This document shows positions 2,233 through 22,969 of a stretch of 46,511 bases of DNA, in pieces; the first letter of the stretch is position 1; each line of letters starts with the position of its first letter. Source of the stretch: Actinomycetota bacterium (GTDB lineage: Bacteria > Actinomycetota > UBA4738 > HRBIN12); assembly GCA_035573995.1 (NCBI GenBank), contig DATLZM010000016.1, positions 1 to 46,511 on the forward strand. The letters are read 5' to 3'. The translations under genes and the position numbers were made by a program. The notes below the pieces were generated by a model. That model was not told where the DNA came from and ran no database searches. It was given only the letters and a program-made list of their open reading frames with translations.

Positions 2233-3378
2233 GTGAGCGGGCACGGCATCACGAGGCGGGACTTCCTCAGGCGCAGCGGTGCGGTGGCGGGGGCCATCAC
2301 GCTCCCCGCCATCTTGGCGGCGTGCGGACGCACTCCCGAGGAGGCGGGCGGCGCGACACCCACGGCCGGTGCCACGAGCCTGGAGGGCGCCCGGATCAAG
2401 GTGAGCACGTACGGCGGGTTCTTCGAGGAGAACTTCCGGAAGATGTACCCCGGCTTCACCGAGGAGACCGGCGTCGAGGTGGAGTCGATCTCCCAGCCCA
2501 CCTCGGAGGTCTGGGTCGTTCAGCTCCAGCAGGCCACCGAGGCTGGGGCGCCGCCTCCCGCCGACGTCTCGATGCTGTCGGGGGTCGGGATCCAGCGAGC
2601 GATCAAGGGCGACGTCCTCGCCACGTACGACCTCACCGCGATCCCCAACGAGCGGTACCTCGCCGACGGCTACGTCCGGCAGGCGCCGGACGGGAAGGTG
2701 GCCGGCGTGGGCGCGGTCTCCTGGTACATCACGCTGGTCTCGAACACGGAACGGGTGCCCGAGAGCCCCGACACCTGGACCACGTTCTGGGACCCGCGCT
2801 GGCGGAACGAGCTCGCGCTGCTCAAGAACGCCGCCAACTCCTACCTGATCGAGATCACCGCGGCGAGCTTCTTCGGTGGCTACGACATCCTGGAGACCCA
2901 GGATGGGGTGGTCGAGGTCCTGACCAAGCTCCAGGAGGTCAAGCCCAACGTGAAGCTCTGGTTCCGGGACGAGGCCACCGCCCAGCAGGCCTACAACACC
3001 GGGGAGGTCTCGATCGGGCAGTTCTACCACGACATCACGACCTACGCGGCCTCCCAGGGCGAGCCGCTCCGGAGCGTCTTCCCGGTGGAGGGGGCGATCC
3101 TCGACTCCGGGTACTGGGCGGTGTCGAAGACCACGCAGGAGCTCGCGGCCTGCCTCGCGTTCATCGACTACATGTGCCGGCCGGAGATCCAGGCGGAGCT
3201 GGCCCGGACGCTCGGCACGACGCCGACCGTGGCCAAGGAGCACATGGACCTCACGCCCGAGGAGTACGAGGCGGTGGGCGGGCCAGGGCCCGAGGCCGCG
3301 CTCCGGCCGAAGTACGAGATGTACGACGAGTGGGAGGACTGGATCGACCAGCGTTGGACCGAGATGATCCTCTCCTGA
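2233..3378 (+). CDS. ABC transporter substrate-binding lipoprotein (PotD/PotF-like extracellular solute-binding family)
   Basis: ORF 2233..3378. Twin-arginine-like signal RRDFLRRSG followed by lipobox LAAC. Size and composition fit a family-1 solute-binding protein. First gene of a 4-gene transporter. Confidence 0.8.
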   Translation: MSGHGITRRDFLRRSGAVAGAITLPAILAACGRTPEEAGGATPTAGATSLEGARIKVSTYGGFFEENFRKMYPGFTEETGVEVESISQPTSEVWVVQLQQATEAGAPPPADVSMLSGVGIQRAIKGDVLATYDLTAIPNERYLADGYVRQAPDGKVAGVGAVSWYITLVSNTERVPESPDTWTTFWDPRWRNELALLKNAANSYLIEITAASFFGGYDILETQDGVVEVLTKLQEVKPNVKLWFRDEATAQQAYNTGEVSIGQFYHDITTYAASQGEPLRSVFPVEGAILDSGYWAVSKTTQELAACLAFIDYMCRPEIQAELARTLGTTPTVAKEHMDLTPEEYEAVGGPGPEAALRPKYEMYDEWEDWIDQRWTEMILS

Positions 3379-3403
3379 CCCACCCATCGCCACCCGGACG
3401 GCC

Positions 3404-4459
3404 GTGACGGCGCGGGGGGGCCTCCGGCTCGAGGGCCTCGTCAAGCGGTTCGGCGACGTCGTCGCCGTGGACGGGGTCCACCTCGAGCTGCCGGCGGGGA
3501 AGCTGATCTCCTTCCTCGGCCCCTCGGGGTGCGGGAAGACGACGCTGCTCCGGATGATCGCCGGCCTCGAGCGCCCCACGGCGGGGCGCGTGTACCTCGA
3601 CGGCGAGGACATCACCGATCGCCCCCCGCACGTCCGGGACGTCGGGATGGTCTTCCAGACCCTCGCCCTGTTCCCGCACCTCACGGTGGCCGGGAACATC
3701 GGGTACGGGCTGCGGATCCGGGGGGTGCCCCGGGAGCGGATCGACGCCCGGGTCCGGGAGCTGCTGGCGCTGGTCTCGCTCGAGGGGCTCGGGGACCGGC
3801 GGATCCACCAGCTCTCCGGCGGTCAGCGGCAGCGCGTCGCCACCGCCCGGGCCCTGGCCCTCGAGCCCCGCCTGTTCCTCCTGGACGAGCCGCTCTCGGC
3901 CCTGGACGCGAACCTCCGCGAGCAGCTCCAGGTCGAGCTTCGCCTGCTCCAGCAGAAGCTCGGGATCACCACGATCATGGTCACCCACGACCAGCGCGAG
4001 GCCATGACCATGTCCGACCTGGTCGTCGTGATGCGGGCCGGACGCGTGGAGCAGGTCGGGGAGCCGCTCGAGGTGTACCGCCGGCCTGCCACGGCGTTCG
4101 TCGCACGCTTCATCGGCACGACGAACCTCCTGCGGGGCCGGGCGTCGGGCCGGGGCACGGTGCTGGTCGCGGCCCACGAGTTCGAGGTCGCCGGCGCTCC
4201 CCCGGACGGCGAGGTGGTGCTCTCGGTCCGGCCCGAGGAGGCCCACCTGGTGCCCGGCGAGGGCCCGGCCCGGAACGCGCTGTCGGGCACCGTGGTCTTC
4301 GTGCGCGATCTCGGCGAGCTGTTCGAGTGCTACGTGGACTGCGGGATCGGGGAGCACGTGATCGTGGCCGGCTCCCCTCGGGAACGGGTCGGGGTCGTCC
4401 AGGGGCAGCGGGTCGCCGTCGTGTTCCCGCCCGAGGCCTGCGTCGTGGTTCGCCCGTGA
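3404..4459 (+). CDS. ABC transporter ATP-binding protein (PotA/CysA-like, with C-terminal TOBE-type domain)
   Basis: Walker A GPSGCGKTT, signature LSGGQRQRVA, Walker B LFLLDEPLSALD, H-loop VTHDQ. Confidence 0.9.
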   Translation: MTARGGLRLEGLVKRFGDVVAVDGVHLELPAGKLISFLGPSGCGKTTLLRMIAGLERPTAGRVYLDGEDITDRPPHVRDVGMVFQTLALFPHLTVAGNIGYGLRIRGVPRERIDARVRELLALVSLEGLGDRRIHQLSGGQRQRVATARALALEPRLFLLDEPLSALDANLREQLQVELRLLQQKLGITTIMVTHDQREAMTMSDLVVVMRAGRVEQVGEPLEVYRRPATAFVARFIGTTNLLRGRASGRGTVLVAAHEFEVAGAPPDGEVVLSVRPEEAHLVPGEGPARNALSGTVVFVRDLGELFECYVDCGIGEHVIVAGSPRERVGVVQGQRVAVVFPPEACVVVRP

Positions 4460-4469
4460 AGGGGGAACG

Positions 4470-5327
4470 GTGATCGAACGGCCGAGGCCGACCCGGGGCG
4501 CCTACCTCGTGCTGGCGTTCCCGGTCGGCGTGCTCGCGATCTTCTTCCTCTCGCCGTTCCTGATCATGCTGGCGACGTCGTTCTACCGCCGGATCGAGGG
4601 CGGCTTCTACGAGCCCGCGTTCGTCCTGGACAGCTGGCGGCGGCTGTTCCAGGAGGTGTTCCTGGAGCGGACCGCGTTCTCGATCGGGATCTCGCTCCTC
4701 GCCGGGGCGGTCTGCATCGCTGCCGCCTTCCCCTTCACCTACTTCCTCACCCGCATGCGCCGCCGTCCGCACGTGGCGCTCCTCGTGCTGATCCTCTCGG
4801 CGCTCTCGCTCTCCGAGGTGATCGTGGGGTTCGCCTGGAGCGTGCTCCTGGGACGGGCCGCGGGCATCTCGAACGTCCTCGTCTGGCTGGGCCTGATGGA
4901 CGAGCCGGTGGCCTACCAGCCAGGGTTCCTCGCCGTGCTCCTGGGGCTCTGCTACATCGCGTTCCCCTACTGCGTGCTGACGCTCTACCCGCCGCTCTCG
5001 CGGCTGGACCGGGAGGTGACCGAGGCCGCCCAGACCCTCGGGGCCTCGCCCTGGCGGACGTTCTGGACCGTGGTGGTGCCGGTGATGCGTCCGACGATCG
5101 TCGCGGGATTCCTGCTCGTGTTCGTGTTCACGCTCGGCAGCTACCTGATCGCCGCGATCCTCGGGAAGCCGGAGCACTGGACGCTCTCGGTGTTCATCTC
5201 CGACCAGGCGTCGTTCAACGCCAACGTCCCGTTCGCCTCGGCGATGGCCCTGTTCCTCACGGTCCTCTCCCTCGCGGTGGTGGGGCTCGTGCTGCTCGTG
5301 GAGTCCCGGACCCGGAGGGTGGCCTGA
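4470..5327 (+). CDS. ABC transporter permease (PotB-like)
   Basis: ORF 4470..5327. Six hydrophobic segments. EAA-type loop (VTEAAQTLGASPWRTFWTVVVP). Confidence 0.85.
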   Translation: MIERPRPTRGAYLVLAFPVGVLAIFFLSPFLIMLATSFYRRIEGGFYEPAFVLDSWRRLFQEVFLERTAFSIGISLLAGAVCIAAAFPFTYFLTRMRRRPHVALLVLILSALSLSEVIVGFAWSVLLGRAAGISNVLVWLGLMDEPVAYQPGFLAVLLGLCYIAFPYCVLTLYPPLSRLDREVTEAAQTLGASPWRTFWTVVVPVMRPTIVAGFLLVFVFTLGSYLIAAILGKPEHWTLSVFISDQASFNANVPFASAMALFLTVLSLAVVGLVLLVESRTRRVA

Positions 5328-6169
5328 TGCGGGCGGTCCGCTGGGCCCTCACCGCGCTCGTGGTCGCGTTCCTCGTGGCCCCCCTCGCGATCGTGCTCGT
5401 CGTCTCGTTCAACGAGAACCGGTACATGGACTTCCCGCCGGAGGGGCTCTCCCTCCACTGGTACGCGGAGCTCTGGAACGACGTGGGTTGGCGCTCGGCC
5501 ATCGAGCGGAGCCTCGTGATCGCCACCACCAGCGCCTTCCTGGCGGTGGCGATCGCCACCCCGATGGCGTACGTGCTCCGGGCCTACCGGGTCCGGCTCG
5601 CCCCCCTCCTGTATTCGCTGGGGATCCTGCCGTTCATGCTGCCCCCGGTGATCAGCGCCCTCGGGGCGCAGGTGTTCTGGAACGAGACCGGGCACATCTA
5701 CCGGATCGAGAACGTGATCGTGGCCCACGCGGTGTTCTTCTCCACGCTCCCGCTCATCACGATCAGCCTGGCGATGGAGCAGATGGACCCCTCGCTCCCC
5801 GAGGCCGCCCAGACCCTCGGGGCCGACCCGCGGACCACGTTCCGGACCGTCACGCTGCCGCTCCTCCTGCCGTCGATGATCACGGGCTACGCGGCGGCGT
5901 TCGTCCTGTCGCTGAACGAGTACATCATCGCCTACCTGGTGGCGGGCTTCACCGTCGAGACCCTCCCGATCAAGATCTTCAACAGCCTCCGCTACGGCTT
6001 CACGCCGACGATCGCCGCGGTGGCCGTCGTGTTCGTCCTGGTGGCCGGGAGCGTCTTCACCCTGTTCGCGATGTTCGGGAACCTCTTGCGGTTCCTCGGC
6101 GCCGACGAGTCGATCCTGGAGCGGACCGAAGCACAGGAGCTCCCCGCCTCCCCTCCGGCCGCCGCTTGA
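5327..6169 (+). CDS. ABC transporter permease (PotC-like)
   Basis: ATG at 5327 overlaps the upstream stop (TGATG). EAA-type loop (LPEAAQTLGADPRTTFRTVTLP). Confidence 0.85.
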   Translation: MRAVRWALTALVVAFLVAPLAIVLVVSFNENRYMDFPPEGLSLHWYAELWNDVGWRSAIERSLVIATTSAFLAVAIATPMAYVLRAYRVRLAPLLYSLGILPFMLPPVISALGAQVFWNETGHIYRIENVIVAHAVFFSTLPLITISLAMEQMDPSLPEAAQTLGADPRTTFRTVTLPLLLPSMITGYAAAFVLSLNEYIIAYLVAGFTVETLPIKIFNSLRYGFTPTIAAVAVVFVLVAGSVFTLFAMFGNLLRFLGADESILERTEAQELPASPPAAA

Positions 6170-6211
6170 GCGGGCCCTCCCGGGGGTATCTCAGGGTCGG
6201 GAGGTGGCGCG

Positions 6212-6910
6212 ATGGACGAGGGCGGAGCGGGGCGCCGGAGGGCGACGCTGAACGGAGCTGATCCGGCCCACGTTGGCACGTCGCGCGGCGACGACCCCGA
6301 CCGGGAGGAGCTCCTCGGGGTGCTCGTCGAGGTACTCGAGACGATGGACCGGGTGGGCTCGCCGTTCGTGTTCATCGGGGGGATCGCCTCGATGCTCCTC
6401 GGACGGCGCCGATGGACCCGGGACCTGGACGTCCTCGTGCGGATCGAGGACGCGCCCGAGGTCCTGGATGCCCTCGGGGAGGCGGGCTTCCGGACCGAGC
6501 AGACGTTCCCGCACTGGCTGTACAAGGCCCGCAAGGGACGCGTCCAGGTCGACGTGATCTTCCGCTCCACCCGGGACGTGATGCTCGACGACGAGATGCT
6601 CGAACGCTCGGTCTGGCGGGAGTTGGAGGGGCACCGGGTCCGCCTGGCGCCGCCCGAGGATCTGGTCGTGATGAAGGCGGTGGCGGCCGACGAGGACACC
6701 CCCCGGTACTGGTACGACGCCCTCGCGATCCTCGCCCACTCCGAGATCGACTGGAACTACCTGCTGCGTCGTGCGCACCAGCACGGCGCGCGGCGGATCC
6801 TCTCGCTGCTCCTCTACGCGCAGTCCAACGACCTCCTCGTGCCGAACGGACCGATCGAGGCCCTCTCCCGGAGGATCCTGGGCGACGATGCGGAGGCCCG
6901 CGATGGGTGA
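6212..6910 (+). CDS. minimal nucleotidyltransferase-fold protein (MNT/AbiEii-like), function unknown
   Basis: IGGIASMLLGRRRWTRDLDVLV fits the GG-x-A...R-x-T-x-D-[LI]-D nucleotidyltransferase signature. ATG 6212 is preceded by GGGAGG. Confidence 0.6.
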   Translation: MDEGGAGRRRATLNGADPAHVGTSRGDDPDREELLGVLVEVLETMDRVGSPFVFIGGIASMLLGRRRWTRDLDVLVRIEDAPEVLDALGEAGFRTEQTFPHWLYKARKGRVQVDVIFRSTRDVMLDDEMLERSVWRELEGHRVRLAPPEDLVVMKAVAADEDTPRYWYDALAILAHSEIDWNYLLRRAHQHGARRILSLLLYAQSNDLLVPNGPIEALSRRILGDDAEARDG

Positions 6911-7154
6911 GGACGCGGGCTACCTGGCCGAGCGGATCCACGAGGCCCTGGCCACCGATCCCCGGGTGGCGGAGCCCGAGCTCGAGGTGCGGCTGGCCGG
7001 GGGGAAGGCCTTCGTCCGGGGGACCGTGCCGACCCGCGCGCGCTGGGCCGCGATCGAGACCGTGATCGCCGAGCGGTTCCCCGGGACGACCGTGGTGAAC
7101 GAGGCGTCGGTGGTCGAGCAGCACGCCGGGAGGACGGAGGAACGGCTGCAGTGA
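6903..7154 (+). CDS. BON domain protein
   Basis: Last 84 codons of ORF 6771..7154. RIHEALATDPRV...LEVRLAGGKAFVRGTVPT...IETVIAERFPGTTVVNE is a single BON-domain pattern. ATG 6903 overlaps the upstream stop by 8 nt. Confidence 0.7.
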   Translation: MGEDAGYLAERIHEALATDPRVAEPELEVRLAGGKAFVRGTVPTRARWAAIETVIAERFPGTTVVNEASVVEQHAGRTEERLQ

Positions 7155-7867
7155 TCCGCGTGGCAGCCGCGGGCGACCTCCACTTCGGCCCCGACTCGAC
7201 GGGGACACTGCGGCCGGCCCTCGCGGTCCTCGCGGCCCGGGCGGATGCACTGCTCCTGGCCGGCGACCTCACGAAGACCGGAACGCCCGCCGAGGCCGAG
7301 GCGCTCGCCGCCGAGCTCTCGGCGGCACCGGTCCCCGTGGTCGCGGTCCTCGGGAACCACGACCACCACTCGGACCGGGCCGGGGACGTCCGGGCCACCC
7401 TCGAGGGCGTAGGGGTGACCGTGCTCGACGGAGAGGCCACCGTGCTCGAGCTCGACGGCGCCCGCGTCGGCGTGGTCGGTGCGAAGGGGTTCGGCGGCGG
7501 CTTCATCGGCGCCTCGGCCTCGGAGTTCGGGGAGCCGGAGATGAAGGCCTTCGTGCGCAGGACCAAGGAGGACGCCGAGCGGATCCGGCGGGGGCTCGGG
7601 GAGCTCGAGGGGCGGGTGGATCTCCGGGTGGCGCTGCTGCACTACGCACCGGTGCGGGACACGCTCCAGGGAGAGCCACCCGAGCTGTTCCCGTTCCTGG
7701 GGAGCTCCCTCCTCGCGGAGGCGGTGGACGGGGCTGGCGCCGACCTCGTCCTCCACGGACACGCGCACCGGGGGACCGAGAAGGGCGCGACCCCGGGCGG
7801 CGTGAAGGTGCGGAACGTGGCTCAGCCCGTGCTCGGCCGCGCCTATCGCGTCTACCGCTTCTCCTGA
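7151..7867 (+). CDS. metallophosphoesterase family protein
   Basis: Motifs GDLHFG, LAGDLT, LGNHDHH, HGHAHRG. GTG 7151 overlaps the BON stop (GTGA). Confidence 0.8.
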   Translation: MIRVAAAGDLHFGPDSTGTLRPALAVLAARADALLLAGDLTKTGTPAEAEALAAELSAAPVPVVAVLGNHDHHSDRAGDVRATLEGVGVTVLDGEATVLELDGARVGVVGAKGFGGGFIGASASEFGEPEMKAFVRRTKEDAERIRRGLGELEGRVDLRVALLHYAPVRDTLQGEPPELFPFLGSSLLAEAVDGAGADLVLHGHAHRGTEKGATPGGVKVRNVAQPVLGRAYRVYRFS

Positions 7868-7937
7868 CGCCGGTTTGCCGGGCCCCGACCTTGGAGAACA
7901 CCTGCGCAGACGTTCTCTTGCCCGGCCAGGAGGTGCC

Positions 7938-9866
7938 GTGTTCGACCGACGCGGACGGATCGATAGCGCCACGAAACGCGTTGCGCTCATCAGCGAGCAC
8001 GCCTCGCCCGTCGCGGAGCTCGGCGGGGTGGACGCGGGCGGCCAGAACGTCTACGTGGGGGAGCTCGCCCGCCACCTCGTCCGGATGGGCTACGACGTGG
8101 ACGTCTTCACCCGTCGCGACGCGGAGGCCTTGCCCGACGTCGCGGAGTGGGTGGACGGCGTGCGGATCGTCAACGTCCCGGCGGGGCCGCCGCGCTTCGT
8201 CCCCAAGGAGGAGCTCCTGCCGTTCATGGATGCCTTCGCCGACCACGTCGTCGCGTTCTGCGAGCGGCAGCCGGGCGGCTACCAGATCGCGCACGCGAAC
8301 TTCTGGATGTCGGGGCTCGTCGCGGCGGAGCTCAAGCGCCGGCTCCGGATCCCGTTCGTCGTCACCTTCCACGCGCTCGGACGGGTCCGCCGGCTCGCGC
8401 AGGGAGACGCCGACCGCTTCCCCGACCAGCGCTTCGCGATCGAGGACCGCGTCGTGCGGGAGGCCGACCACATCATCGCCGAGTGCCCCCAGGAGGAGGA
8501 GGACCTGATCCGCCTGTACGACGCCGACCCGGTGCGGATCACCGTGATCCCCGCAGGGTTCGATCCGGGCGAGCTCCACCCGATGAGCAAGGAGCTGGCG
8601 CGGGTGGCGGTGGGGCTCCGCCCCGAGGACCGGGTCGTCCTCCACGTGGGCCGGATGGTTCCCCGGAAAGGCGTGGACACGGTGATCGAGGCCCTGGGCC
8701 GCCTGGTCCGGGTGCACGGCATGGAGGCCATCCTGGTGATCGCGGGGGGCGACACCGACCGTCCGGACCCCGAGGCGACGCCGGAGATCGGACGCCTGCA
8801 GCGCGTCGCCCGCCGGGAGAGGGTGGAGGACCGGGTGCGGTTCGTGGGCCGGGTCGGCCGGGAGAAGCTCAAATACTTCTACAACGCCGCCGACGTCTTC
8901 GTTACGACGCCCTGGTACGAGCCCTTCGGGATCACCCCGCTCGAAGCGATGGCCTGTGGGACCCCGGTGATCGGCTCGAACGTCGGCGGGATCAAGTTCA
9001 CCGTCCGCGACGGCGAGACCGGCTACCTCGTGCCCCCGCGGGATCCCGACCGCGTCGCCGAGCGCCTCGCACACCTCTTCGGTCACCCTCGGCTCATGGC
9101 CCTCTTCGGGCGCCAGGGGATTCGACGGACCAACGACCTCTTCACGTGGCGTCACGTGGCGACCGCGGTGGCCGCCCTCTACGAGCAGGTGTGCCTGTCG
9201 GGGAGCACCGACGAGCTCGAGCACGCCGACGAACTCGCGGCCATCGAACGCGCCTTCGCCGGACTCACGCGGTCGCTCGCCGAGGCGAGCTCGATCCTGG
9301 CCCCCGTGATCGCGCGGGCCGGGCGCGTGCTCGTGGAGACCTTCGAGACGGGCGGCAAGGTCCTGATCTGCGGGAACGGCGGCAGCGCCGCCGAGGCCCA
9401 ACACCTGGCCGCGGAGCTCGTCGGCCGCTTCAAGCACCCGGACCGGCCGGGGCTGCCAGCCCTCGCGCTCACCTCCGACTCCGCGGTGATGACGGCGTGG
9501 TCCAACGACGTCGCGTTCGAGGACGTCTTCGCCCGCCAGATCGAGGCCCTGGGGTCGCGCGGCGACGCCCTCCTCTGCCTCTCCACCTCTGGGCGGTCGA
9601 GGAACGTGGTCCGGGCCCTCGAGACCGCCCGGCGCGCCGGCATCCGGACCGTGGCCGTCCTGGGCGGGGACGGGGGACTCGCGCGCAAGCTCTGCGACGT
9701 GGCGGTCGTGGTCCCCTCGACCGAGCCCCAACGCGTCCAAGAGATCCACCTCCTCGTCGTCCACCTCCTGTCCGAGATCGTCGAAGCCCGGCTGTTCTCC
9801 AGACCGTGGGACGAACTCCTGTCCGGCGGCCGTCGGGCGGTGGCGGCACGCAACGACGCGGGATGA
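7938..9866 (+). CDS. fusion protein: GT4 (GT-B, sucrose-phosphate-synthase/MshA-like) glycosyltransferase plus GmhA-type SIS sedoheptulose-7-phosphate isomerase
   Basis: ORF 7875..9866. GTG 7938 is preferred because AGGAGG lies 4 nt upstream. N-terminal part has ALISEHASPVAELGGVDAGGQNVYV and EPFGITPLEAMACGTPV (E-x7-E). C-terminal ~200 aa have GGKVLICGNGGSAAEAQHLAAEL, CLSTSGRSRNV and QEIHLLVVH, which align by eye with GmhA. Confidence 0.85.
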   Translation: MFDRRGRIDSATKRVALISEHASPVAELGGVDAGGQNVYVGELARHLVRMGYDVDVFTRRDAEALPDVAEWVDGVRIVNVPAGPPRFVPKEELLPFMDAFADHVVAFCERQPGGYQIAHANFWMSGLVAAELKRRLRIPFVVTFHALGRVRRLAQGDADRFPDQRFAIEDRVVREADHIIAECPQEEEDLIRLYDADPVRITVIPAGFDPGELHPMSKELARVAVGLRPEDRVVLHVGRMVPRKGVDTVIEALGRLVRVHGMEAILVIAGGDTDRPDPEATPEIGRLQRVARRERVEDRVRFVGRVGREKLKYFYNAADVFVTTPWYEPFGITPLEAMACGTPVIGSNVGGIKFTVRDGETGYLVPPRDPDRVAERLAHLFGHPRLMALFGRQGIRRTNDLFTWRHVATAVAALYEQVCLSGSTDELEHADELAAIERAFAGLTRSLAEASSILAPVIARAGRVLVETFETGGKVLICGNGGSAAEAQHLAAELVGRFKHPDRPGLPALALTSDSAVMTAWSNDVAFEDVFARQIEALGSRGDALLCLSTSGRSRNVVRALETARRAGIRTVAVLGGDGGLARKLCDVAVVVPSTEPQRVQEIHLLVVHLLSEIVEARLFSRPWDELLSGGRRAVAARNDAG

Positions 9867-10624
9867 TGGGGACCGGACCGGCGCCAGGGCGGGAGCCCCA
9901 TCCGCCCCTCGCGGGTACGACGGCCCTCGTCACGGGCGCCGGCCGGGGTCTGGGCCGCGCCATCGCGGCCGTGCTCTCCGACGCCGGCGCCCGCGTGTTC
10001 GCGGCCGACGTGGCCTGGGAGGACGAGCAAGCCGCGGGGGGCAACGAGCCCATCCCGGCGCGGGGGATCGAGCCCATCCTCCTGGACGTAGCCGACCGCG
10101 GATCGGTCCGAGCGGCGGTGGAGGCGGTCGAGGCCGCGGCCGGTCCGATCCGGGTGGTGGTGAACAACGCCGGGATCGACGTGACCGCTCCGTTCGAGGA
10201 GATCGACCCGGCGACGTGGGACCGGATCATCGACGTCAACCTCCGCGGGCCCGCCAACGTCTCCCGCGCCGTGTGGGGATCGATGCGACGCGCCGGCGGG
10301 GGCTCCATCGTGAACGTCGTCTCGACCGCCGCCCGGCGGGCGTGGGCGAACGCCTCCGCCTACCACGCAAGCAAGTGGGGGCTCCTCGGCTTCTCCCACG
10401 CGCTCCACGTGGAAGGGCGGGAGGCAGGGATCCGGGTGACCGCCGTGATCGCCGGGGGGATGCGCACGCCCTTCCTCCTCGACCGCTTCCCGGGGATCGA
10501 TCCCTCGACCCTCCAAGAGCCCGAGGCCGTGGCCGCCGCGGTCCGGTTCGCCGTCACCCAGCCGGAAGGCACCGTGATCCCCGAGATCATGGTGGTGCCG
10601 ACGGCGGAGACGTCCTGGCCGTGA
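9863..10624 (+). CDS. classical short-chain dehydrogenase/reductase
   Basis: Last 253 codons of ORF 8147..10624. Motifs TGAGRGLG, NNAG, S-x(n)-YHASK. ATG 9863 overlaps the upstream stop (ATGA). Confidence 0.85.
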   Translation: MMGTGPAPGREPHPPLAGTTALVTGAGRGLGRAIAAVLSDAGARVFAADVAWEDEQAAGGNEPIPARGIEPILLDVADRGSVRAAVEAVEAAAGPIRVVVNNAGIDVTAPFEEIDPATWDRIIDVNLRGPANVSRAVWGSMRRAGGGSIVNVVSTAARRAWANASAYHASKWGLLGFSHALHVEGREAGIRVTAVIAGGMRTPFLLDRFPGIDPSTLQEPEAVAAAVRFAVTQPEGTVIPEIMVVPTAETSWP

Positions 10625-11799
10625 GCGCTGACTTCGTCGGAGCCCCCTCCGCCGCTGCCGGCGCCGTCGCAGGAGGCCTCCCGGCGCCCACCGGGACGGC
10701 CGACCCGTCCCGGGTGCGCCGCTGGCGGGAAGCCCGCCGGGTCCTCGCCGTCCGCCTGGACGGCATCGGCGACCTGCTCATGACCACGCCGGCCCTCCGG
10801 GCGCTCAAGGCCTCAGCGCCCGGACGGTCGATCACGCTCCTCTGCGCCCGACGGGTGCTGGAGGCGGCAGCCCTCGTTCCGGAGGTGGACCGGTCGATCG
10901 CCCACGACGCGTCCTGGGTGAAGGGGCCGGCTCCGTCGCCTGCGGCCGAGCGGCGTCTCGTCCGGCAGCTCAGGCGGATGCGGTTCGAGGCCGCTGTGAT
11001 CTTCACGGTGTCCACCCAGAGCGCGCTGCCGGCCGCCACCCTCTGCCGTCTCGCCGGGATCCCCCTCCGGTTGGCCCACGTCCGCGAGAAGGTCTACGAC
11101 CTCCTCACGGACCCCGTGCCCGATCCGGAGCCCGAGCGGGACCCCCGACACGAGGTCCGCCGCCAGCTCGATCTCGTGGGCGCGGTCGGCGCGAGGTCGC
11201 CCGACCCGTCCCTCTCCCTCCGGATCCCGGACGCCGCGCGTCGCCGAGCCGCCGAGCTGCTCCGCGCCGCCGGCCTGGACCCGTCCCGCCCGTGGGTCCT
11301 CCTCCACCCGGGCGCCTCGGCGCCCTCCCGGCGCTACCCGGCCCTTTCCTACGGCGCAGCCGCCCAGCTATTGGACGGGGACGGGATCCAGGTGCTGGCG
11401 GTCTCCGGCCCCCGCGAGGAACCGCTCCTGGAGGCGGTCGCCGCCGCGGCGCCGGCCGTCCGTCGCCTCCCGGCCGCGCCCACCTTCGCCGTGCTCGCCG
11501 CGCTCGTCGAGGCCGCCCCGGTCCTGATCGCGAACAACTCGGCCCCGGCCCACGTGGCGGCGGCGGTCGGCACACCCGTCGTCGACCTCTACGCGTGGAC
11601 GAACCCGCAGCACGGTCCCTGGGGCGTCCCGAGCCGGGTGCTCAACCGGGACGTCCCGTGCCGGGGCTGTCGCCGGAGCGTCTGTCCCCTCGGCCACCAC
11701 CACTGCCTCACGCTCGTGCCGCCGGCCGAGGTGGCGGAGGCCGCCCGCGGTCTGCTCGGGATGCGAGCGACCTCCAGACACGTGGCATGGGCCGGATGA
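10621..11799 (+). CDS. glycosyltransferase family 9 (heptosyltransferase) paralog 1
   Basis: RVLAVRLDGIGDLLMTTPALRAL, HPGASAPSRRYP, IANNSAPAHVAAAVGTP. C-terminal CRGC..CPLGHHHC cluster. GTG 10621 overlaps the SDR stop. The start could be a little further downstream. Confidence 0.8.
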   Translation: MSADFVGAPSAAAGAVAGGLPAPTGTADPSRVRRWREARRVLAVRLDGIGDLLMTTPALRALKASAPGRSITLLCARRVLEAAALVPEVDRSIAHDASWVKGPAPSPAAERRLVRQLRRMRFEAAVIFTVSTQSALPAATLCRLAGIPLRLAHVREKVYDLLTDPVPDPEPERDPRHEVRRQLDLVGAVGARSPDPSLSLRIPDAARRRAAELLRAAGLDPSRPWVLLHPGASAPSRRYPALSYGAAAQLLDGDGIQVLAVSGPREEPLLEAVAAAAPAVRRLPAAPTFAVLAALVEAAPVLIANNSAPAHVAAAVGTPVVDLYAWTNPQHGPWGVPSRVLNRDVPCRGCRRSVCPLGHHHCLTLVPPAEVAEAARGLLGMRATSRHVAWAG

Positions 11800-12395
11800 G
11801 GTTTGGCCGTTCGAGCGAGGGGTACGAGGAGCACGTGGAACGCGGCCAGCGGCGGGTCGGTGCGGTCCTCTTCGACCGCGATGGGACCCTGATCGAGGAC
11901 GTCCCGTACAACGCGGAGCCCGCCCGCGTGGTGCCCCGTCCCGGCGCGCGGAGCGCGATCGAGTTGCTCCGAGGCGCTGGGCTGGCCCTGGGCGTGGTCA
12001 CGAACCAGAGCGGGATCGGCCGGGGTCTGGTCGACGCCGCCGCCGTGGCACGGGTGAACCGACGGGTGGAGGAGCTCCTGGGCCCGTTCGGCGTGTGGGC
12101 GATCTGCCCTCACCATCCCGAAGCGGGCTGCGGCTGTCGGAAGCCGGCCCCAGGGCTCGTGCTCCGCGCCGCCGAGGCCTTGGGGCGTGCGCCCGAGGAG
12201 TGCGTGGTGGTGGGCGACACCTGGGCGGACGTGGGCGCCGCGCTCGCCGCGGGCGCCGGCGGCATCCTCGTCCCCAACGACCGTACGCGGCCGGAGGAGC
12301 TGCGCATGGCCCCGGAGGTCCGCGCCTCGCTGACCGAAGCGGCCCAGGCGATCGTGGCCCGCCTACGCCCGCTGGCCACCGAGGGGAGGAGGTAG
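11787..12395 (+). CDS. gmhB: D-glycero-D-manno-heptose 1,7-bisphosphate phosphatase (HAD-IIIA, GmhB-like)
   Basis: LFDRDGTLIED, VVTNQSGIGRG, Zn-type CPHHPEAGCGCRKP, VVGDTWADV. ATG at 11787 or 11796 overlaps the GT9 stop. Confidence 0.8.
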   Translation: MGRMRFGRSSEGYEEHVERGQRRVGAVLFDRDGTLIEDVPYNAEPARVVPRPGARSAIELLRGAGLALGVVTNQSGIGRGLVDAAAVARVNRRVEELLGPFGVWAICPHHPEAGCGCRKPAPGLVLRAAEALGRAPEECVVVGDTWADVGAALAAGAGGILVPNDRTRPEELRMAPEVRASLTEAAQAIVARLRPLATEGRR

Positions 12396-12397
12396 TC

Positions 12398-12805
12398 ATG
12401 CCGAAGACGTCGAGGGAAGGGAAGCCGAGGAAGGGCGAGCTGCCGAAGACCCTCCAACGGTCGCCGGCGAAGGCCCAGCGCACGTACGCGAAGGCCCACG
12501 ACAGCGCGGTCGAGACCTACGGCGAGGGGCAGCGAGCGCACCGCGTCGCGATCGCCGCGCTCAAGCACTCGTTCGAGAAGGTCGGCGACCACTGGGAGCC
12601 GAAGGACCGGAAGGGGCCGTCGGACCCCCGGGCGAAGCGCGGCGGACGCGAGGCCCGGGCCGGCCGGGGCGAGACCTTCGGCGGGATCGACGTCGAGGGT
12701 TCGAGCCGGGCGGAGCTCCTGGAGCGGGCGCGGGCGCTCGGCATCAGGGGCACCTCCCGGATGAACAAGCGGGAGCTCGCCGAGGCCATCGCCCGCGAGC
12801 AGTGA
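12398..12805 (+). CDS. ChaB-like protein with C-terminal Rho-N/SAP-like domain
   Basis: ATG 12398 preceded by GGAGGAGG. LPKTLQRSPAKAQRTYAKAHDSAVETYG is ChaB-like. SRAELLERARALGIRGTSRMNKRELAEAI is a Rho-N-type helix-hairpin. Confidence 0.7.
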   Translation: MPKTSREGKPRKGELPKTLQRSPAKAQRTYAKAHDSAVETYGEGQRAHRVAIAALKHSFEKVGDHWEPKDRKGPSDPRAKRGGREARAGRGETFGGIDVEGSSRAELLERARALGIRGTSRMNKRELAEAIAREQ

Positions 12806-12812
12806 CGCGGCG

Positions 12813-12992
12813 TCATCCCTCCGCGGTCACGTCCCGGAGGAACGCGGCCCGGAGCCGCCGCAGGAGCCGACGGGCCCTCCGCGAGGCGGCCGCCATCTCC
12901 GGTGCGCCGGCCTCCCTGGCGAGGTGCTCGATCGTCTGGAGCTCCTCGAGGACGTCCGAGAACCGGACCGGATCCCCGCCGCGACGGCTCAC
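12813..12992 (-). CDS. small hypothetical helical protein (59 aa; below the ORF-track cut-off)
   Basis: Hand translation: V(GTG)SRRGGDPVRFSDVLEELQTIEHLAREAGAPEMAAASRRARRLLRRLRAAFLRDVTAEG, stop TGA. GAGGGG lies 8 nt upstream. By my count GC3 is ~92%, GC2 ~56% and GC1 ~81%, which is a coding-like pattern. Confidence 0.45.
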   Translation of the reverse strand: MSRRGGDPVRFSDVLEELQTIEHLAREAGAPEMAAASRRARRLLRRLRAAFLRDVTAEG

Positions 12993-13037
12993 CTGCCCAT
13001 CCCCTCACCCGGCTCGCCGGATGGCGACGTCCTCGAC

Positions 13038-13175
13038 CTACCGACCACGTCGCCGCTCCCTGGTCCTGCGGCGCGGGACCGTCCCGCGTTCCAGCGCCAG
13101 GCACTCTTGGCACAGCCCGAGCAGCGAGCGGGTCACCGCGCCGCAGCGTTCGCATCCGATCGCGATGGTCTTCAT
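13038..13175 (-). CDS. small CxxC...CxxC zinc-ribbon protein with Arg-rich tail (45 aa; below the ORF-track cut-off)
   Basis: Hand translation: MKTIAIGCERCGAVTRSLLGLCQECLALERGTVPRRRTRERRRGR, stop TAG. Its ATG overlaps the stop of the upstream gene (ATGA at 13175-13172). GGAGGG lies upstream. Confidence 0.55.
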   Translation of the reverse strand: MKTIAIGCERCGAVTRSLLGLCQECLALERGTVPRRRTRERRRGR

Positions 13176-13798
13176 ACCCGCAGCTTTCCCCCTCCGCCGG
13201 GAGGCGAACCGGCTTCGCGGGGCTCACCCGCCCACGCCGCGTCCGGTCCGCAGCGGCTCCCCGCGTACCTCGCGTCGTTCCCGTCGAACACGTCGAGGTC
13301 CACCCCATCGGGCAGCCCCAGGGAACGGAGCAGCAGCCGGCGATGGTCGCGCCGTGCGACGAACGCCTCGTAGGCCGAGACGACGAAGGGGATCCCCGAC
13401 GCGACGATCCCGCCGAAGATCTGCCGGTAGGCCCGGCGAAGGTTCGCGTAGGCTCGCCCGAGGTCGGGGACGTGTCCCCGGTCCACTTGGCTGGCGGCGG
13501 TCGCGAACCAGTCCCGCGTCGTCACCACCGCCACGGCCTCGTCGACGTCCAGGGCGCCCACGAGCGCCGGGACATCGGGCCACTCGTGCGGCCCCGCGGG
13601 GGGATGCCAGTGAGGCGCGCTCCGCCGGATCACCGGCGGCCGGTCATCGGGTGGCGGCTCGGGGCCGTCGTCGCCGCCGACCACGGCCGTCGGCCGGCAC
13701 CCGGCCAGCACGAGCAGCCGGGCCGTCATCCTGGTCCCGCTCGATTCGGGCCCCAGGACGAGGAAGCCGCGCGAGGGTCGCTGGTTGTGGAGGGCCAT
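13172..13798 (-). CDS. P-loop-like protein, possibly sulfotransferase-fold; function unknown
   Basis: Last 208 codons of ORF 13172..14782 (-), starting at MALHNQRPSRGFLVLGPESSGTRM. GPESSGT resembles a 5'-PSB loop and VVTTRDWFATAAS resembles the R-D-x(6)-S 3'-PB motif of bacterial sulfotransferases. High GC3. Confidence 0.7.
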   Translation of the reverse strand: MALHNQRPSRGFLVLGPESSGTRMTARLLVLAGCRPTAVVGGDDGPEPPPDDRPPVIRRSAPHWHPPAGPHEWPDVPALVGALDVDEAVAVVTTRDWFATAASQVDRGHVPDLGRAYANLRRAYRQIFGGIVASGIPFVVSAYEAFVARRDHRRLLLRSLGLPDGVDLDVFDGNDARYAGSRCGPDAAWAGEPREAGSPPGGGGKLRV

Positions 13799-13819
13799 CG
13801 CCTGGGTATCTCCCCCGCG

Positions 13820-14935
13820 ATGCCCGAGCTGGAACCCCTCCGCCGGGTCGCGATCCTCCGGGCCCTGCGGCTCGGCGACCTGCTGTGCTCGGTGCCGGCC
13901 CTGCGGGCGCTGCGCCGGGCCTGGCCCCACGCCGAGATCACGCTGATCGGCCGGCCCTGGGCCGCGTGGTTCGTGCGCCGGTTCTCCTACCTCCTCGACC
14001 GCTTCCTCGCGCTCCCGGGCTGGCCGGGGGTCACCGAAGAGTTCGACCCCGGCGCGGCCCCGGGGTTCCTCGTCGAGGCGCAGGGGCGCCGCTTCGACCT
14101 GGTGGTCCAGATGCACGGGAGCGGGCTCGCATCGAACCCCCTCGCGCTGCTCCTCGGGGCACGCCGGACCGCCGGCTACTTCCTCCCCGGCCAACCCAGG
14201 CCCGATCCGGAGCTCGCGGTGCCGTACCCCGGGCACGGCCCCGAGGTCCTCCGGCACCTCGAGCTGGCGGCGGCGCTCGGGGCCCCCGCAGGCGGCACGC
14301 ACCTCGAGATACCCGTCCTCCCCGGGGACCACGAACGGCTCACCGCGGCGCTGGGAGGGGAGCGGCTCGACGCGTACGTCGTGCTCCATCCCGGGGCCGC
14401 GGACCCGGCACGCCGCTGGTCCCCCGAGGGGTTCGCGGCGGTGGGCGACCGGCTGGGGCCCGACCTCCGGGTCGTGATCACCGGGACCGATGACGAGCGG
14501 GGGGTGGCTAGGGCGGTCGCGGAAGCGATGGATGCTCCCGCGCTCGACCTGTCGGGGCGAACGGACCTCGACGCGCTGGTGGCGCTCGTCGCGGGAGCCC
14601 GGCTCGTGGTGGCGAACGACACGGGCGTCTCCCACCTCGCCGACGCCCTGGGGGTGCCGAGCGTGGTGGTGTTCACGGCCTCCGACCCGGCCCGCTGGGC
14701 TCCACTGGACCGGGAGCTCCACCCGGTCGCGGTCGGGCCGACGATCGAGCGGAACCCGTGCCGTCACCTCGAGGGCGAACACCGCTGTCTGCGTGACGCC
14801 TGCCGGATCGGTCAGCGGCGGCTGACGGAGATCGCCCGGGACGCGGTGGACCCCGCCCTCGTGGTGGAGCTGGCCCGGCGGGCCCTCGCCCAGCGGTCAT
14901 CGAGGCGCCGAGCGCTCCCGGACCCCGTTGGCTGA
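13820..14935 (+). CDS. glycosyltransferase family 9 (heptosyltransferase) paralog 2
   Basis: Last 371 codons of ORF 12902..14935. RVAILRALRLGDLLCSVPALRAL, HPGAADPARRW, VANDTGVSHLADALGVP. C-terminal Cys/His cluster CRHLEGEHRCLRDAC. Confidence 0.85.
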   Translation: MPELEPLRRVAILRALRLGDLLCSVPALRALRRAWPHAEITLIGRPWAAWFVRRFSYLLDRFLALPGWPGVTEEFDPGAAPGFLVEAQGRRFDLVVQMHGSGLASNPLALLLGARRTAGYFLPGQPRPDPELAVPYPGHGPEVLRHLELAAALGAPAGGTHLEIPVLPGDHERLTAALGGERLDAYVVLHPGAADPARRWSPEGFAAVGDRLGPDLRVVITGTDDERGVARAVAEAMDAPALDLSGRTDLDALVALVAGARLVVANDTGVSHLADALGVPSVVVFTASDPARWAPLDRELHPVAVGPTIERNPCRHLEGEHRCLRDACRIGQRRLTEIARDAVDPALVVELARRALAQRSSRRRALPDPVG

Positions 14936-16013
14936 GGCAGGCCACCCCCGCGACGTGGCGCGGGCCGCCGTGCTCCGAGCAGGTGGGCTCGGCGACCTGG
15001 TCTTCGCGCTGCCCGCCCTCGAGGCGCTCCGCTCGCGCTTCCCGGGAACCGAGATCGTGCTGCTGGGCGCGCCCTCCCACGCGGAGATCCTCGGGCCTCG
15101 GGGGACGCCGGTCGACCGCGTCGAGGTCGTGCCGCCCTGGCCGGGCCTGCGAGAGGAGCCCGGCGCGATCCCGGACCCGCGCGATCAGGCGGCGTTCCTC
15201 TCGCGGATGCGGCGAGAGCGGTTCGACGTCGCCGTACAGCTCCACGGAGGCGGCCGGCGTTCGAACCCGTTGGTACGCAGCCTGGGGGCGAGGTTGACGG
15301 TGGGCCTTCGGAGCCCCGACGCACCCGAGCTCGACCGATGGGTCCCGTACGTGTACCACCAGCACGAGGTGCTCCGGGGCCTCGAGGTGGTGGCGCTCCT
15401 CGGCGCGCGGCCCCGCTCCCTTCTACCGCGCCTCTCCCCCACCCCGACCGAGATCGAGGCCTCCCGGAGGCTCGTGTCGGAGGGGGATCCCATCGCCGTC
15501 CTCCACCCTGGCGCGGGCGATCCCAGGCGGCGGTGGCCCCCGGAGGGATTCGCGCAGGTGGGCGACCGCCTCGCCGAACTCGGGGCGCAGGTCGTCGTCA
15601 TCGGGACGGCGCCCGAGGCGGGGGTGGCCGCCCGGGTGGCAGCCGCGATGCGACGGCCCGCATCGACCCTGGCGGGACGCCTGTCCCTGCCCGCACTCCT
15701 CGGGCTCCTGGCCAGGGCTCGACTGGTCGTCTCCAACGACAGCGGTCCGCTCCACCTCGCAGCAGCCCTCGGTACACGGACCGTCGGCATCTACTGGTGC
15801 GGCAACCTGATAAACGCTGGGCCGCTCGCCACCGCGCGCCACCGGCCGGTCGCCTCCTGGCGCCTCACCTGCCCCACCTGCGAGGCGAGCTGCCTCCACG
15901 GATCGTGCGCTCACCGCGGATCGTTCGTCGCGGACGTGCGACCGCAGGACGTCCTGGCCGAGGCCCTCGACCTGTGGAACGGACCGGGTGTAGGGGACCC
16001 CGGGAAGGGGTAA
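14928..16013 (+). CDS. glycosyltransferase family 9 (heptosyltransferase) paralog 3
   Basis: ORF 14928..16013 (TTG start overlapping the upstream stop; the start could be slightly later). AVLRAGGLGDLVFALPALEAL, HPGAGDPRRRWP, VSNDSGPLHLAAALGT. C-terminal CPTCEASCLHGSCAH. Confidence 0.85.
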   Translation: MAEAGHPRDVARAAVLRAGGLGDLVFALPALEALRSRFPGTEIVLLGAPSHAEILGPRGTPVDRVEVVPPWPGLREEPGAIPDPRDQAAFLSRMRRERFDVAVQLHGGGRRSNPLVRSLGARLTVGLRSPDAPELDRWVPYVYHQHEVLRGLEVVALLGARPRSLLPRLSPTPTEIEASRRLVSEGDPIAVLHPGAGDPRRRWPPEGFAQVGDRLAELGAQVVVIGTAPEAGVAARVAAAMRRPASTLAGRLSLPALLGLLARARLVVSNDSGPLHLAAALGTRTVGIYWCGNLINAGPLATARHRPVASWRLTCPTCEASCLHGSCAHRGSFVADVRPQDVLAEALDLWNGPGVGDPGKG

Positions 16014-16058
16014 CCACGAGCCGTGAGGCAAGGGGACCGGACGGCGAGCGCGGCCGGG

Positions 16059-16319
16059 ATGGTGGTCCGCGTGATCGAGCTCGTCGGGAGCTCCGAGCGG
16101 TCCTTCACCGACGCGGTGCGGCGAGCCGTGCGCCCCGCGTCCGGATGCCTCCCGGGGATCGTCGGCGTGGAGGTCGTATCCGCCACGGCCGACGTGGGCG
16201 GGGAGGGGGGCGTTTCCCTGTTCAAGGTGACTTGCAGGGTCGCCTATGAAGGCGAGGGGGGAGGCCTCCCGAGGACCCCCTCGGCCTCGTCGTCTGGGGG
16301 GAGGCCGCGCCACGATTAG
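16059..16319 (+). CDS. dodecin-family (flavin-binding) protein with an atypical C-terminal tail
   Basis: MVVRVIELVGSSERSFTDAVRRAV...GIVGVEVV...FKVTCRVAY fits the dodecin pattern. About 21 extra Gly/Ser/Pro/Arg residues follow the core. Confidence 0.7.
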   Translation: MVVRVIELVGSSERSFTDAVRRAVRPASGCLPGIVGVEVVSATADVGGEGGVSLFKVTCRVAYEGEGGGLPRTPSASSSGGRPRHD

Positions 16320-17154
16320 GGCGATGGCTTTGTCGAACATCTTCGTCGTCGGCAGCGGGTCGCCAGGCCGCGATGATCGAGAGGGTCCCCCCGCCGCGCA
16401 CCGTGTGGATCGCGTCGGTGAGGGCCGTCAGCCGTCCGAACCGGAGCGCTCGGCGACCGGCTTCCCATCGCCTCCGGCAGCCAGGAGGGGATCCGCTGCC
16501 CCACCTTGGCCAGCGGGTTGCCGTGAGCCTCCATCCCCACGGCGTCGATGACGCCGTCCGGGCCGCCGGCCGTCGGTCTGGTCGGTCAGGTGCGGGGATG
16601 TCCTCCACGACGCTCGCGTCCACGGTCTCGACCCCGTGCCGCTGCGTCCGCAGGCGGTCCAGGAGCAGGTCCACGCCGAACACGGCCCGACCGGCCCGTA
16701 GAGGGCCGTAGAGTCGCCTATCCGGGCGTCCGCGTGCTGGGACGCCTGTCAGCCGGTGGGGAGGACGTCGGAGAGGTAGACGAACTGGTCTTCCGGCTGG
16801 CCCCTCTGGCAGGCGCAGGAACTCGGCCTCGCCGCCGGGAAGCAGCCAGAGCTTCGTGTAGCCGAAGAGCGACGCCCCTGCGCCGGGGCCTTGGGTGGTC
16901 TCGCACTCGAGTAAAGCCCGCGTCCGGAGACGTTGAAGGGGATCATGCAGTCCCGGGGCCGGATGCGTCCCGCGGCCTCGGGGCCGACCTCCTCGACGAC
17001 CCCATCGGCTCGTCGCCCAGGATCTCGCCCGGGCTCGAGGAACGCGGAGAGCAGTCGTGGAGGTGCAGTCGGAGCCACAGACGTTCGTTCTGGTATTCGG
17101 ACGATCGCGTCGTTCGATCTCCGGATCGCCCCGGCGTCCTCTACGCCCGACCAC
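16310..17154 (-). pseudogene. frameshifted, truncated zinc-dependent alcohol/formaldehyde dehydrogenase (MDR family) remnant
   Basis: MDR-like segments are scattered over three minus-strand frames. These are ICGSD-like NVCGSD, CETTQ..LFGYTKL..PGGEAEFLRLP and AIHTVRGGGTLSII (ORF 16222..17154); GVVEEVGPEAAGRIRP..IPFNVS (ORF 16749..17078); GMEAHGNPLAKVGQRI (ORF 16316..16540); and MFDKAIALI (start of ORF 15423..16340). Both the N- and C-termini are missing. Confidence 0.65.
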
Positions 17155-21804: not shown

Positions 21805-21893
21805 AGCCGATCCTCCTCCCGTTCCGAGGCCGTCGCACCGACCGCATCCCATCGGGATGCCCGCGATCGATGATTCCCCGGGGTGGGCCTCCG

Positions 21894-22964: not shown

Positions 22965-22969
22965 CGGCC

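Follow-up and report, generated by a model that had tools for sequence, protein, structure and literature searches.

Three described systems come closest to the locus reported here. The first is the pair of sucrose-phosphate synthase and sucrose-phosphate phosphatase (SPS/SPP), represented by Tll1590 of T. elongatus (TeSPS, 6KIH) and by the SPS-SPP fusions of plants and cyanobacteria. The second is MshA, the GT4 glycosyltransferase of mycothiol synthesis, with the C. glutamicum enzyme (3C48/3C4Q) as its structural reference. The third is the pathway for ADP-L/D-glycero-D-manno-heptose of the lipopolysaccharide (LPS) inner core, which comprises GmhA, HldE, GmhB, and the GT9 transferases WaaC and WaaF. 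Genes for ADP-heptose are widespread beyond Gram-negative LPS producers, where their downstream uses are unknown (PMC11461863, summarizing Tang et al. 2024). Heptose biosynthetic domains are also organized variously, with the nucleotidyltransferase occurring alone, with the kinase, or with both isomerase and kinase (Tang et al. 2024, Science 385:678, summarized in PMC11461863). The fusions covered by that summary join heptose enzymes to each other, and a fusion of GmhA to a glycosyltransferase is not part of it. Here, we analyze such a fusion, a GT4 glycosyltransferase joined in frame to the sedoheptulose-7-phosphate isomerase GmhA. It is encoded on a 46,511-nucleotide contig of an Actinomycetota bacterium (DATLZM010000016.1, assembly GCA_035573995.1), hereafter the window. 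Our preferred reading, to which we assign a probability of roughly 55%, is that the protein is a bifunctional enzyme of a widely conserved, uncharacterized pathway in which a supply module and a primer module together give rise to an oligosaccharide or glycoconjugate that contains heptose.

The fused gene occupies positions 7938–9866 of the plus strand as a single stop-free reading frame, running from a GTG at 7938 to a TGA at 9864–9866 and preceded by a GGAGG ribosome-binding site at 7929–7933, 4 nt from the start codon. A preliminary description of this DNA, made by reading the letters alone, had counted 643 codons, which are the 642 amino acids of the translation plus the stop. The GT4 and GmhA motifs it quoted (ISEHASPVAELGGVDAGGQNVYV, GGKVLICGNGGSAAEAQHLAAEL, STSGRSRNV, and QEIHLLVVH) were all located in the translation. 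The GT4 part covers amino acids ~14–420 (nt ~7977–9197) and the GmhA part amino acids ~436–622 (nt ~9243–9803), with a helical connector in between. Pfam recognized Glyco_transf_4 at residues 34–210, Glycos_transf_1 at 219–393, and SIS_2 at 443–576. Because spurious long open reading frames (ORFs) are frequent at the GC content of the window, 70–77%, we checked the codon-position GC of this frame. GC at third codon positions (GC3) was 0.88–0.98 from 7968 to ~9700 and flat through the junction at 9180–9240. We then searched a database of 5.8 billion proteins and examined the best 120 matches: all were 626–678 amino acids long, shared 59–68% identity at a query coverage of at least 92%, and carried GT4 together with SIS_2, and the short connector between the halves was conserved among homologs. 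A merger of two separate genes by a sequencing or assembly error near 9180–9240 is vanishingly improbable, given the continuous frame, the uniform GC3, and more than 120 independent homologs from many samples and phyla that encode the same architecture in one ORF. The translation, the GC3 profile, and these homologs likewise exclude that the junction hides a missed stop or a frameshift, the flaw for which the preliminary description had advised looking. In an AlphaFold2 (AF2) monomer model (pLDDT 84.7, pTM 0.66), the final GT4 helix (404–421) is almost continuous with the long first helix of GmhA (424–470), and the connector is modeled as short rather than as a long flexible linker.

The best solved relatives of the GT4 half all act on sugar phosphates. 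By sequence, its best match among solved structures was TeSPS (263 bits), followed by C. glutamicum MshA (218 bits) and the SPS of H. orenii (HoSPS). By fold, using the AF2 model and target-normalized template-modeling (TM) scores, TeSPS (0.88) again preceded MshA in its closed form (0.86), HoSPS, and GlgM, and sugar-phosphate acceptors are common to these four. Both GT4 Pfam models were passed (PF13439, 107.9 bits with a cut-off of 28.5; PF00534, 137.6 bits with a cut-off of 26.4). In TeSPS, His158 and Glu331 are catalytic and Glu339 binds the ribose, while R105 and R178 contact the acceptor phosphate and A48 and Q51 the fructose (PMC7264703). The alignment places H145, E328, and E336 opposite the first three. 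K90 and R165 take the places of the two arginines and correspond to K78 and R154 of MshA; Q36 matches Q51, and A33 matches A48, a position that is Ser in most homologs. H145, E328, E336, K90, R165, and Q36 are invariant in 77 orthologs, fused and unfused alike, so the E-x7-E motif noted earlier is borne out as E328 and E336. Two further arginines, R149 and R152, are specific to this family and adjoin the catalytic histidine. Contacts of the TeSPS type show that the pockets are similar, not that the substrate is the same. Overall, the closest relatives and the invariant phosphate ligands support the assignment, already made in the preliminary description, of this half to the SPS/MshA type of retaining GT4 enzymes, the group that glycosylates phosphorylated acceptors.

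Could the GT4 half simply be a canonical MshA or a canonical SPS that happens to be fused to GmhA? Many homologs are indeed named “D-inositol-3-phosphate glycosyltransferase” by JGI, TeSPS and MshA are the best PDB matches, and the N-terminal HxSP...GG.NVY motif is common to MshA and our protein. With SPS it shares the GT-B GT4 fold, the retaining class, the catalytic His and Glu, the two basic residues at the acceptor phosphate, and the fructose-contacting Gln, as well as the pairing of a GT4 with a phosphatase of the HAD superfamily, which is fused in some organisms. Nevertheless, we consider this identity very improbable, and curated cut-offs together with gene context exclude it: the MshA equivalog TIGR03449 scored 302.3 bits (cut-off 462.5) and the SPS glycosyltransferase domain TIGR02472 only 151.8 bits (cut-off 576). 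The ligands of inositol phosphate in MshA, which we take to be K78, Y110, T134, and R154, are kept at the lysine and the arginine, but Y110 and T134 are replaced by F122 and A146, and the GGMN of MshA reads GGQN. This GT4 family extends to phyla not known to include mycothiol producers, which we count against MshA, and none of the window genes that we scanned was identified as a mycothiol gene. This GT4 family is always accompanied by genes for GT9 transferases, a HAD phosphatase, and a short GT1-type glycosyltransferase, along with GT2 and often HldE genes, unlike SPS. Its partner phosphatase is a GmhB-like HAD-IIIA enzyme, canonical SPP being a member of another HAD subfamily, and its fusion partner here is GmhA rather than an SPP-like domain.

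The GmhA half aligns over its full length with solved GmhA enzymes (157–170 bits), as had been judged by eye, and scores about 170 bits against GmhA structures compared with about 144 bits against the paralog DiaA. Its score with the GmhA model TIGR00441, 190 bits, is slightly under the cut-off of 209.45. This half of the model superposes on P. aeruginosa GmhA (1X92) with a target-normalized TM score of 0.92–0.93, a root-mean-square deviation of 1.6 Å, and 42% identity. The zinc-binding and catalytic residues H489, E493, Q601, and H609 are kept in the alignment and conserved in the family; presumably they are the counterparts of H64, E68, Q175, and H183 of B. pseudomallei GmhA. The phosphate-binding loops GNGGS (480–483) and STSGRS (549–554) are retained too, and the domain looks catalytically intact. 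In contrast, the SIS domains of three related loci, L022 (10001–11935), L026 (10001–11938), and L047 (207–2075), from Nitrospira and relatives and from a Chitinophagaceae metagenome-assembled genome (MAG), lack GNGGS, the His/Glu pair, and STSG while retaining full length; L022 and L026 are also without HldE. These are likely pseudo-enzyme domains, and such a dead SIS domain may act as a structural scaffold.

The genes around the fusion provide a context in which both halves can be placed. Directly downstream on the plus strand lie a classical short-chain dehydrogenase/reductase (SDR, 9863–10624), whose ATG overlaps the TGA of the fusion (ATGA), a GT9 gene (10621–11799), whose GTG overlaps the SDR stop, and the HAD phosphatase (11787–12395). 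Genes after the fusion overlap or abut as far as the ChaB gene that follows. Two further GT9 genes are found at 13820–14935 and 14928–16013 (+). The three GT9 genes belong to distinct types: the first (GT9_1) follows HAD/HldE in related loci, the second (GT9_2) is elsewhere usually located upstream of the GT4 gene, and the third (GT9_3) is the final cluster gene in locus L001. All three match Glyco_transf_9 (83, 95, and 107 bits; Pfam cut-off 22). By searching the window with proteins of a related locus (tblastn) and confirming the matches with Pfam, we located a second block on the minus strand. It contains a short GT-B glycosyltransferase, labeled GT1half because only the C-terminal Glycos_transf_1 half is recognized (24445–25527 as the maximal ORF, with the real start probably near 25440); the gene that immediately precedes GT4 in other genomes shares 56% identity with it. 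Next to GT1half is an HldE-type heptose-7-phosphate kinase/heptose-1-phosphate adenylyltransferase (22970–24460, start approximate) with PfkB and CTP_transf_like domains (PF00294, 126 bits; PF01467, 62 bits) and 54% identity to the HldE-type gene of L001. A GT2 glycosyltransferase (21894–22964) is 55% identical to the cluster GT2 of that locus. The cluster is split in the window into 7938–16013 (+) and, about 6 kb further along, 21894–25527 (−), a block that reaches to 21322 if a loosely associated SRPBCC gene is counted; in most genomes the cluster is contiguous. As judged from these families, the window appears to encode the full route from sedoheptulose-7-phosphate (S7P) to ADP-heptose together with three GT9 transferases, which the preliminary description had missed.

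These are the enzyme families of the LPS heptose pathway, yet the cluster differs from that pathway in several respects. It occurs in lineages that are monoderm or lack LPS (Actinomycetota, Chloroflexota, Patescibacteria) and constitutes an extra copy in Gram-negatives. It contains no genes for Kdo, lipid A, or HldD, and it combines the heptose genes with GT4, GT1-type, GT2, SDR, and often carbamoyltransferase genes. Its HAD belongs to a clade apart from housekeeping GmhB, and its GT9s score below the cut-offs of WaaC, WaaF, and WaaQ; the window GT9s are best regarded as members of the GT9 family and not as LPS core enzymes. A hydropathy scan of the core enzymes revealed no clear transmembrane segment.

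To place the fusion in a wider setting, we scanned one genome per GTDB species and recovered at least 599 stretches, 575 of which encode relatives, fused or unfused; the 80 best loci were retrieved, and the gene set of the cluster is syntenic across them. They span Actinomycetota, Chloroflexota, Cyanobacteria (Leptolyngbya, Nodosilinea, Oscillatoria), Bacteroidota (Pedobacter, Mucilaginibacter, Parapedobacter), Nitrospira, Myxococcota (Nannocystis), Beta- and Gammaproteobacteria, Patescibacteria, Planctomycetota, Gemmatimonadota, Acidobacteriota, and Elusimicrobiota. The fusion itself recurs in more than 120 full-length homologs from at least 10 phyla. Of the retrieved loci, about 44 have the fusion and about 33 carry an orthologous GT4 that ends after the GT4 domain, which together with the 575 relatives excludes a rare or unique fusion. 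The question of whether the fusion was already common and functionally assigned was therefore answered in its first part only: we found no paper on this fusion or cluster in the full-text literature searched, which covers few subscription journals, so that a published characterization may exist, and no curated family assigns the fusion a function. Homologs bear generic names such as “glycosyltransferase”, “D-inositol-3-phosphate glycosyltransferase”, and “phosphoheptose isomerase”. A salt-stress paper on Frankia lists an up-regulated “ADP-heptose:LPS heptosyltransferase”, whose orthology to the cluster is not established.

The canonical gene order is GT9, GT9, GT1half, GT4[-GmhA], SDR, HAD, HldE, GT9, GT2, GT9. 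We compared gene content between fused and unfused loci, limiting presence counts to those with at least 6.5 kb downstream (36 fused, 21 unfused). HldE was present in 28 of the 36 fused loci versus 4 of the 21 unfused, and a separate GmhA gene was found in none of the latter (0/21). The HAD gene was retained in both groups (32/36 and 17/21), most unfused loci being without HldE and GmhA, and the SDR lay directly 3′ of the GT4 gene in 28 fused and 8 unfused loci. Since GmhA tracks HldE and decays without it, its job is most likely to supply ADP-heptose to the GT9s. It follows that the GmhA domain and HldE would form one supply module, kept where the organism depends on an ADP-heptose supply of its own and otherwise dispensable or in decay. 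The unfused GT4 orthologs are 52–63% identical to ours and have an identical acceptor pocket, and the chemistry of the GT4 is therefore independent of the fused GmhA. In a neighbor-joining (NJ) tree of GT4 domains, a crude distance tree without support values, fused forms are interspersed with unfused ones in both Bacteroidota and Chloroflexia. This pattern excludes a single ancient fusion event and indicates that fusion or fission probably happened repeatedly.

The HAD phosphatase, which the preliminary description had placed three genes downstream of the fusion and which we confirmed there, is of the HAD-IIIA, GmhB/HisB-N type. Its DxDGT motif (FDRDGT) and its Cys/His zinc loop, CPHHPEAGCGCRKP, can be read from the translation and recur when it is aligned with 4PNH and 3L8H, and GmhB structures were its best structural matches. 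It reached neither GmhB equivalog (NF006506, 107.7 bits with a cut-off of 178; TIGR00213, 62 bits with a cut-off of 149.6) and passed only the broader models for HAD-IIIA and for the histidinol-phosphatase domain. The HADs of the cluster form their own clade, apart from the housekeeping GmhB of Burkholderia and Bordetella. For example, the cluster HAD of Noviherbaspirillum, a member of Burkholderiales, shares 62% identity with the cluster copy of a cyanobacterium but only 35% with Burkholderia GmhB (4PNH), whereas the GmhB proteins of Burkholderia and Bordetella share 67% identity. Moreover, in three proteins from clustering at 50%, P0129 (61% identity over amino acids 13–418), P0144, and P0182, the GT4 is fused to a C-terminal HAD domain orthologous to that of the window (40–42% identity, E-values 1e-27 to 1e-28). 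In another, P0141, the GT4 ortholog is fused to the upstream GT1-type protein. The nucleophilic Asp of the P0144 HAD is replaced by Gly (FIGKDGT); this domain may be inactive, like the SPP-like domain of plant SPS. The linkage and fusions support a functional tie between the GT4 and the HAD. An SPS/SPP-like pair of synthase and phosphatase is plausible because the phosphate contacts are kept, the HAD is retained even in unfused loci, GT4-HAD fusions exist, and the HAD forms a separate lineage. These links between GT4 and HAD mirror the arrangement of SPS/SPP and give the general idea of such a pair, put forward in the preliminary description, its strongest support.

In the pathway that we favor, the GmhA domain would convert S7P to D-glycero-D-manno-heptose-7-phosphate, and HldE with a 7-phosphatase step would turn this product into ADP-heptose, the donor for the three cluster GT9s. 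Family membership and conserved catalytic residues point to these supply activities. In the primer module, the GT4 domain would glycosylate a small phosphorylated acceptor, the cluster-specific GmhB-like HAD would strip the phosphate, and the resulting primer would be extended by the short GT1-type enzyme, the GT9s, and the GT2. This module is suggested by the conserved phosphate ligands, the gene linkage, and the GT4-HAD fusions. A heptose phosphate is one candidate acceptor, and the GmhB-derived phosphatase could make a 7-phosphorylated heptose derivative attractive in this role. The fusion would then reflect co-expression of neighboring pathway genes and not an obligatory substrate channel, with the tetrameric SIS domain possibly serving as a scaffold as well. 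Several observations weigh against this pathway. The pTM of 0.66 makes the inter-domain geometry of the model unreliable. Of the four residues that bind the phosphate in MshA, two are altered, as noted above. All three GT9s fall under the NCBIfam heptosyltransferase cut-offs (at best 118 versus 134.6 bits, TIGR02195, with the remaining scores much lower), and their use of ADP-heptose is assumed from family membership alone. The HAD could be just the GmhB of the pathway, and its retention in loci without HldE could be an accident of scattered heptose genes, the counts being per locus only. Finally, GT4-HAD and GT4-GmhA fusions can arise by stop loss between operon neighbors, and would then prove a shared pathway and not consecutive steps.

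The preliminary description had gone further and suggested from the fusion that the GT4 may act directly on what GmhA binds or makes. In that scheme, the GT4 would glycosylate heptose-7-phosphate or S7P, and the GmhB-like HAD would remove the 7-phosphate to leave a non-reducing glycosyl-heptose or glycosyl-heptulose disaccharide, perhaps extended by GT9s. S7P is the C7 homolog of fructose-6-phosphate, and an SPS-like pocket in which the Gln and both phosphate-binding basic residues are invariant, with R149 and R152 beside the catalytic His, speaks for this scheme; however, no feature sets a heptose phosphate apart from other phosphorylated acceptors, and the same pocket is present in unfused orthologs. 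Joining the GT4 to an enzyme that binds both S7P and heptose-7-phosphate is suggestive, but operon adjacency explains the fusion equally well, GmhA follows HldE and not the GT4, and fusions with a dead SIS domain persist, hence channeling is unnecessary. The phosphatase also fits: it comes from a heptose-7-phosphate family, yet from a lineage apart from housekeeping GmhB, and it is kept with the GT4, sometimes fused to it, where HldE and GmhA are gone. On balance we find this scheme unlikely, and its derivation from the fusion is probably wrong, since a supply of ADP-heptose explains GmhA more simply in a cluster with HldE and three GT9s. The SPS/SPP-like route proposed with it survives as a plausible synthase-phosphatase pair, but probably not as a route separate from ADP-heptose, given the HldE and GT9 genes.

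A plainer account would treat the GT4 as one of about seven transferases that extend a glycan, whether its acceptor is a lipid, a protein, or a sugar. The HAD would then be the GmhB of the ADP-heptose route, and the fusion a means of co-expression only. A complete ADP-heptose set with many glycosyltransferases is typical of glycan clusters, and the interleaving of fused and unfused forms in the GT4 tree fits a fusion of little consequence; nonetheless, the nearest characterized relatives of the GT4 use small phosphorylated acceptors and its phosphate ligands are invariant. Similarly, the GmhB zinc loop and the best structural matches of the HAD agree with a GmhB, but the HAD is retained where HldE and GmhA are gone and groups apart from housekeeping GmhB even inside Burkholderiales. 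In addition, our all-against-all clustering of ORFs from 83 loci found no transporter, flippase, ligase, or polyprenyl-phosphate transferase co-conserved with the cluster, which counts against this account as well. We hold it to be unlikely. Returning to the two-module pathway, a more specific form of it would have the GT4 and the GmhB-like HAD act on heptose-7-phosphate or S7P. The resulting glycosyl-heptose core, non-reducing in nature, would be lengthened with ADP-heptose by the GT9, GT1-type, and GT2 enzymes to yield a heptose oligosaccharide that is soluble, cytoplasmic, and, in many taxa, carbamoylated. This version is speculative and, in our estimation, quite unlikely.

The ORF clustering also brought to light associated genes. 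A NodU/CmcH-like O-carbamoyltransferase of ~590 amino acids, assigned to its family by eye from the sequence, follows a GT9 gene in 27 loci (e.g., L075:13708–15480 and L057:14489–16231) and is absent from the window; it suggests that the glycan may be carbamoylated in the taxa that bear it. A radical-SAM gene lies beside the carbamoyltransferase in 8 loci, and a PucR-like regulator was found in 15 loci, chiefly cyanobacterial.

Additional genes of the window adjoin the cluster. Within the plus-strand block, a small ChaB/Rho_N protein is encoded at 12398–12805 (+), with homologs (59–63% identity) near the cluster in L003 and L007 too. Between the ChaB gene and the second GT9 gene, a ~200-amino-acid ORF on the minus strand (13172–13780) shows coding-like GC3 and a P-loop-like LVLGPESSGT motif, with no Pfam or NCBIfam match. 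At the end of the minus-strand block, an SRPBCC/polyketide-cyclase-like protein (21322–21852, −) is loosely associated, being near the cluster in about 10 other loci. The region between the two blocks contains a dodecin gene, an M50 protease, and a membrane protein. The protease (17141–19297, −; 718 amino acids) combines Peptidase_M50 with two CBS domains, a PDZ domain, and a Lon_C-like C-terminal domain, an unusual site-2-protease architecture. The membrane protein (19761–21272, −) is a polytopic, strongly hydrophobic protein of 503 amino acids that adjoins the SRPBCC/GT2/HldE/GT1half block; it has no Pfam match, and at other loci it is not kept together with the cluster. Upstream of the fusion, the plus strand (2233–6910 and 7151–7867) encodes an ABC importer (SBP_bac_8, a TOBE_2-domain ATPase, and two permeases), an NTP_transf_5 nucleotidyltransferase, and a metallophosphoesterase, a homolog of which lies near the cluster in L040 and L066 with no pathway link established. 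A scan of positions 6000–17000, which covered sigma-70 promoters and intrinsic terminators, found nothing and so did not substantiate the possible stress-type promoter elements of the preliminary description, with which it had associated a compatible-solute-like product. The closest GTDB representative, an Actinomycetota MAG, is just 66% identical, and the window therefore comes from a poorly sampled high-GC lineage.

What the fusion marks is a conserved set of about 10 genes, in which a private ADP-heptose supply is joined to three or four GT9s and an SPS/SPP-like module. Its main interest lies in this cross-phylum, apparently cytoplasmic heptose-glycan cluster. The pattern of fused and unfused loci offers a clean case of modular cluster evolution, in which a supply module (GmhA, HldE) is gained, lost, or decays independently of a core (GT4, HAD, GT1-type, GT9). 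With the product of the cluster identified, thousands of genes that now go under the names “glycosyltransferase”, “MshA”, or “phosphoheptose isomerase” would gain a function. This product could be a new heptose glycan, and environmental and commensal bacteria with the cluster might prove to be a previously unrecognized source of ADP-heptose, an immune agonist. If the GT4 acceptor proves to be a C7 sugar phosphate and the product a heptose oligosaccharide, the cluster would define a new class of small glycans that spans at least 10 phyla, monoderms and Patescibacteria among them, and would provide the first explanation of ADP-heptose use outside LPS.

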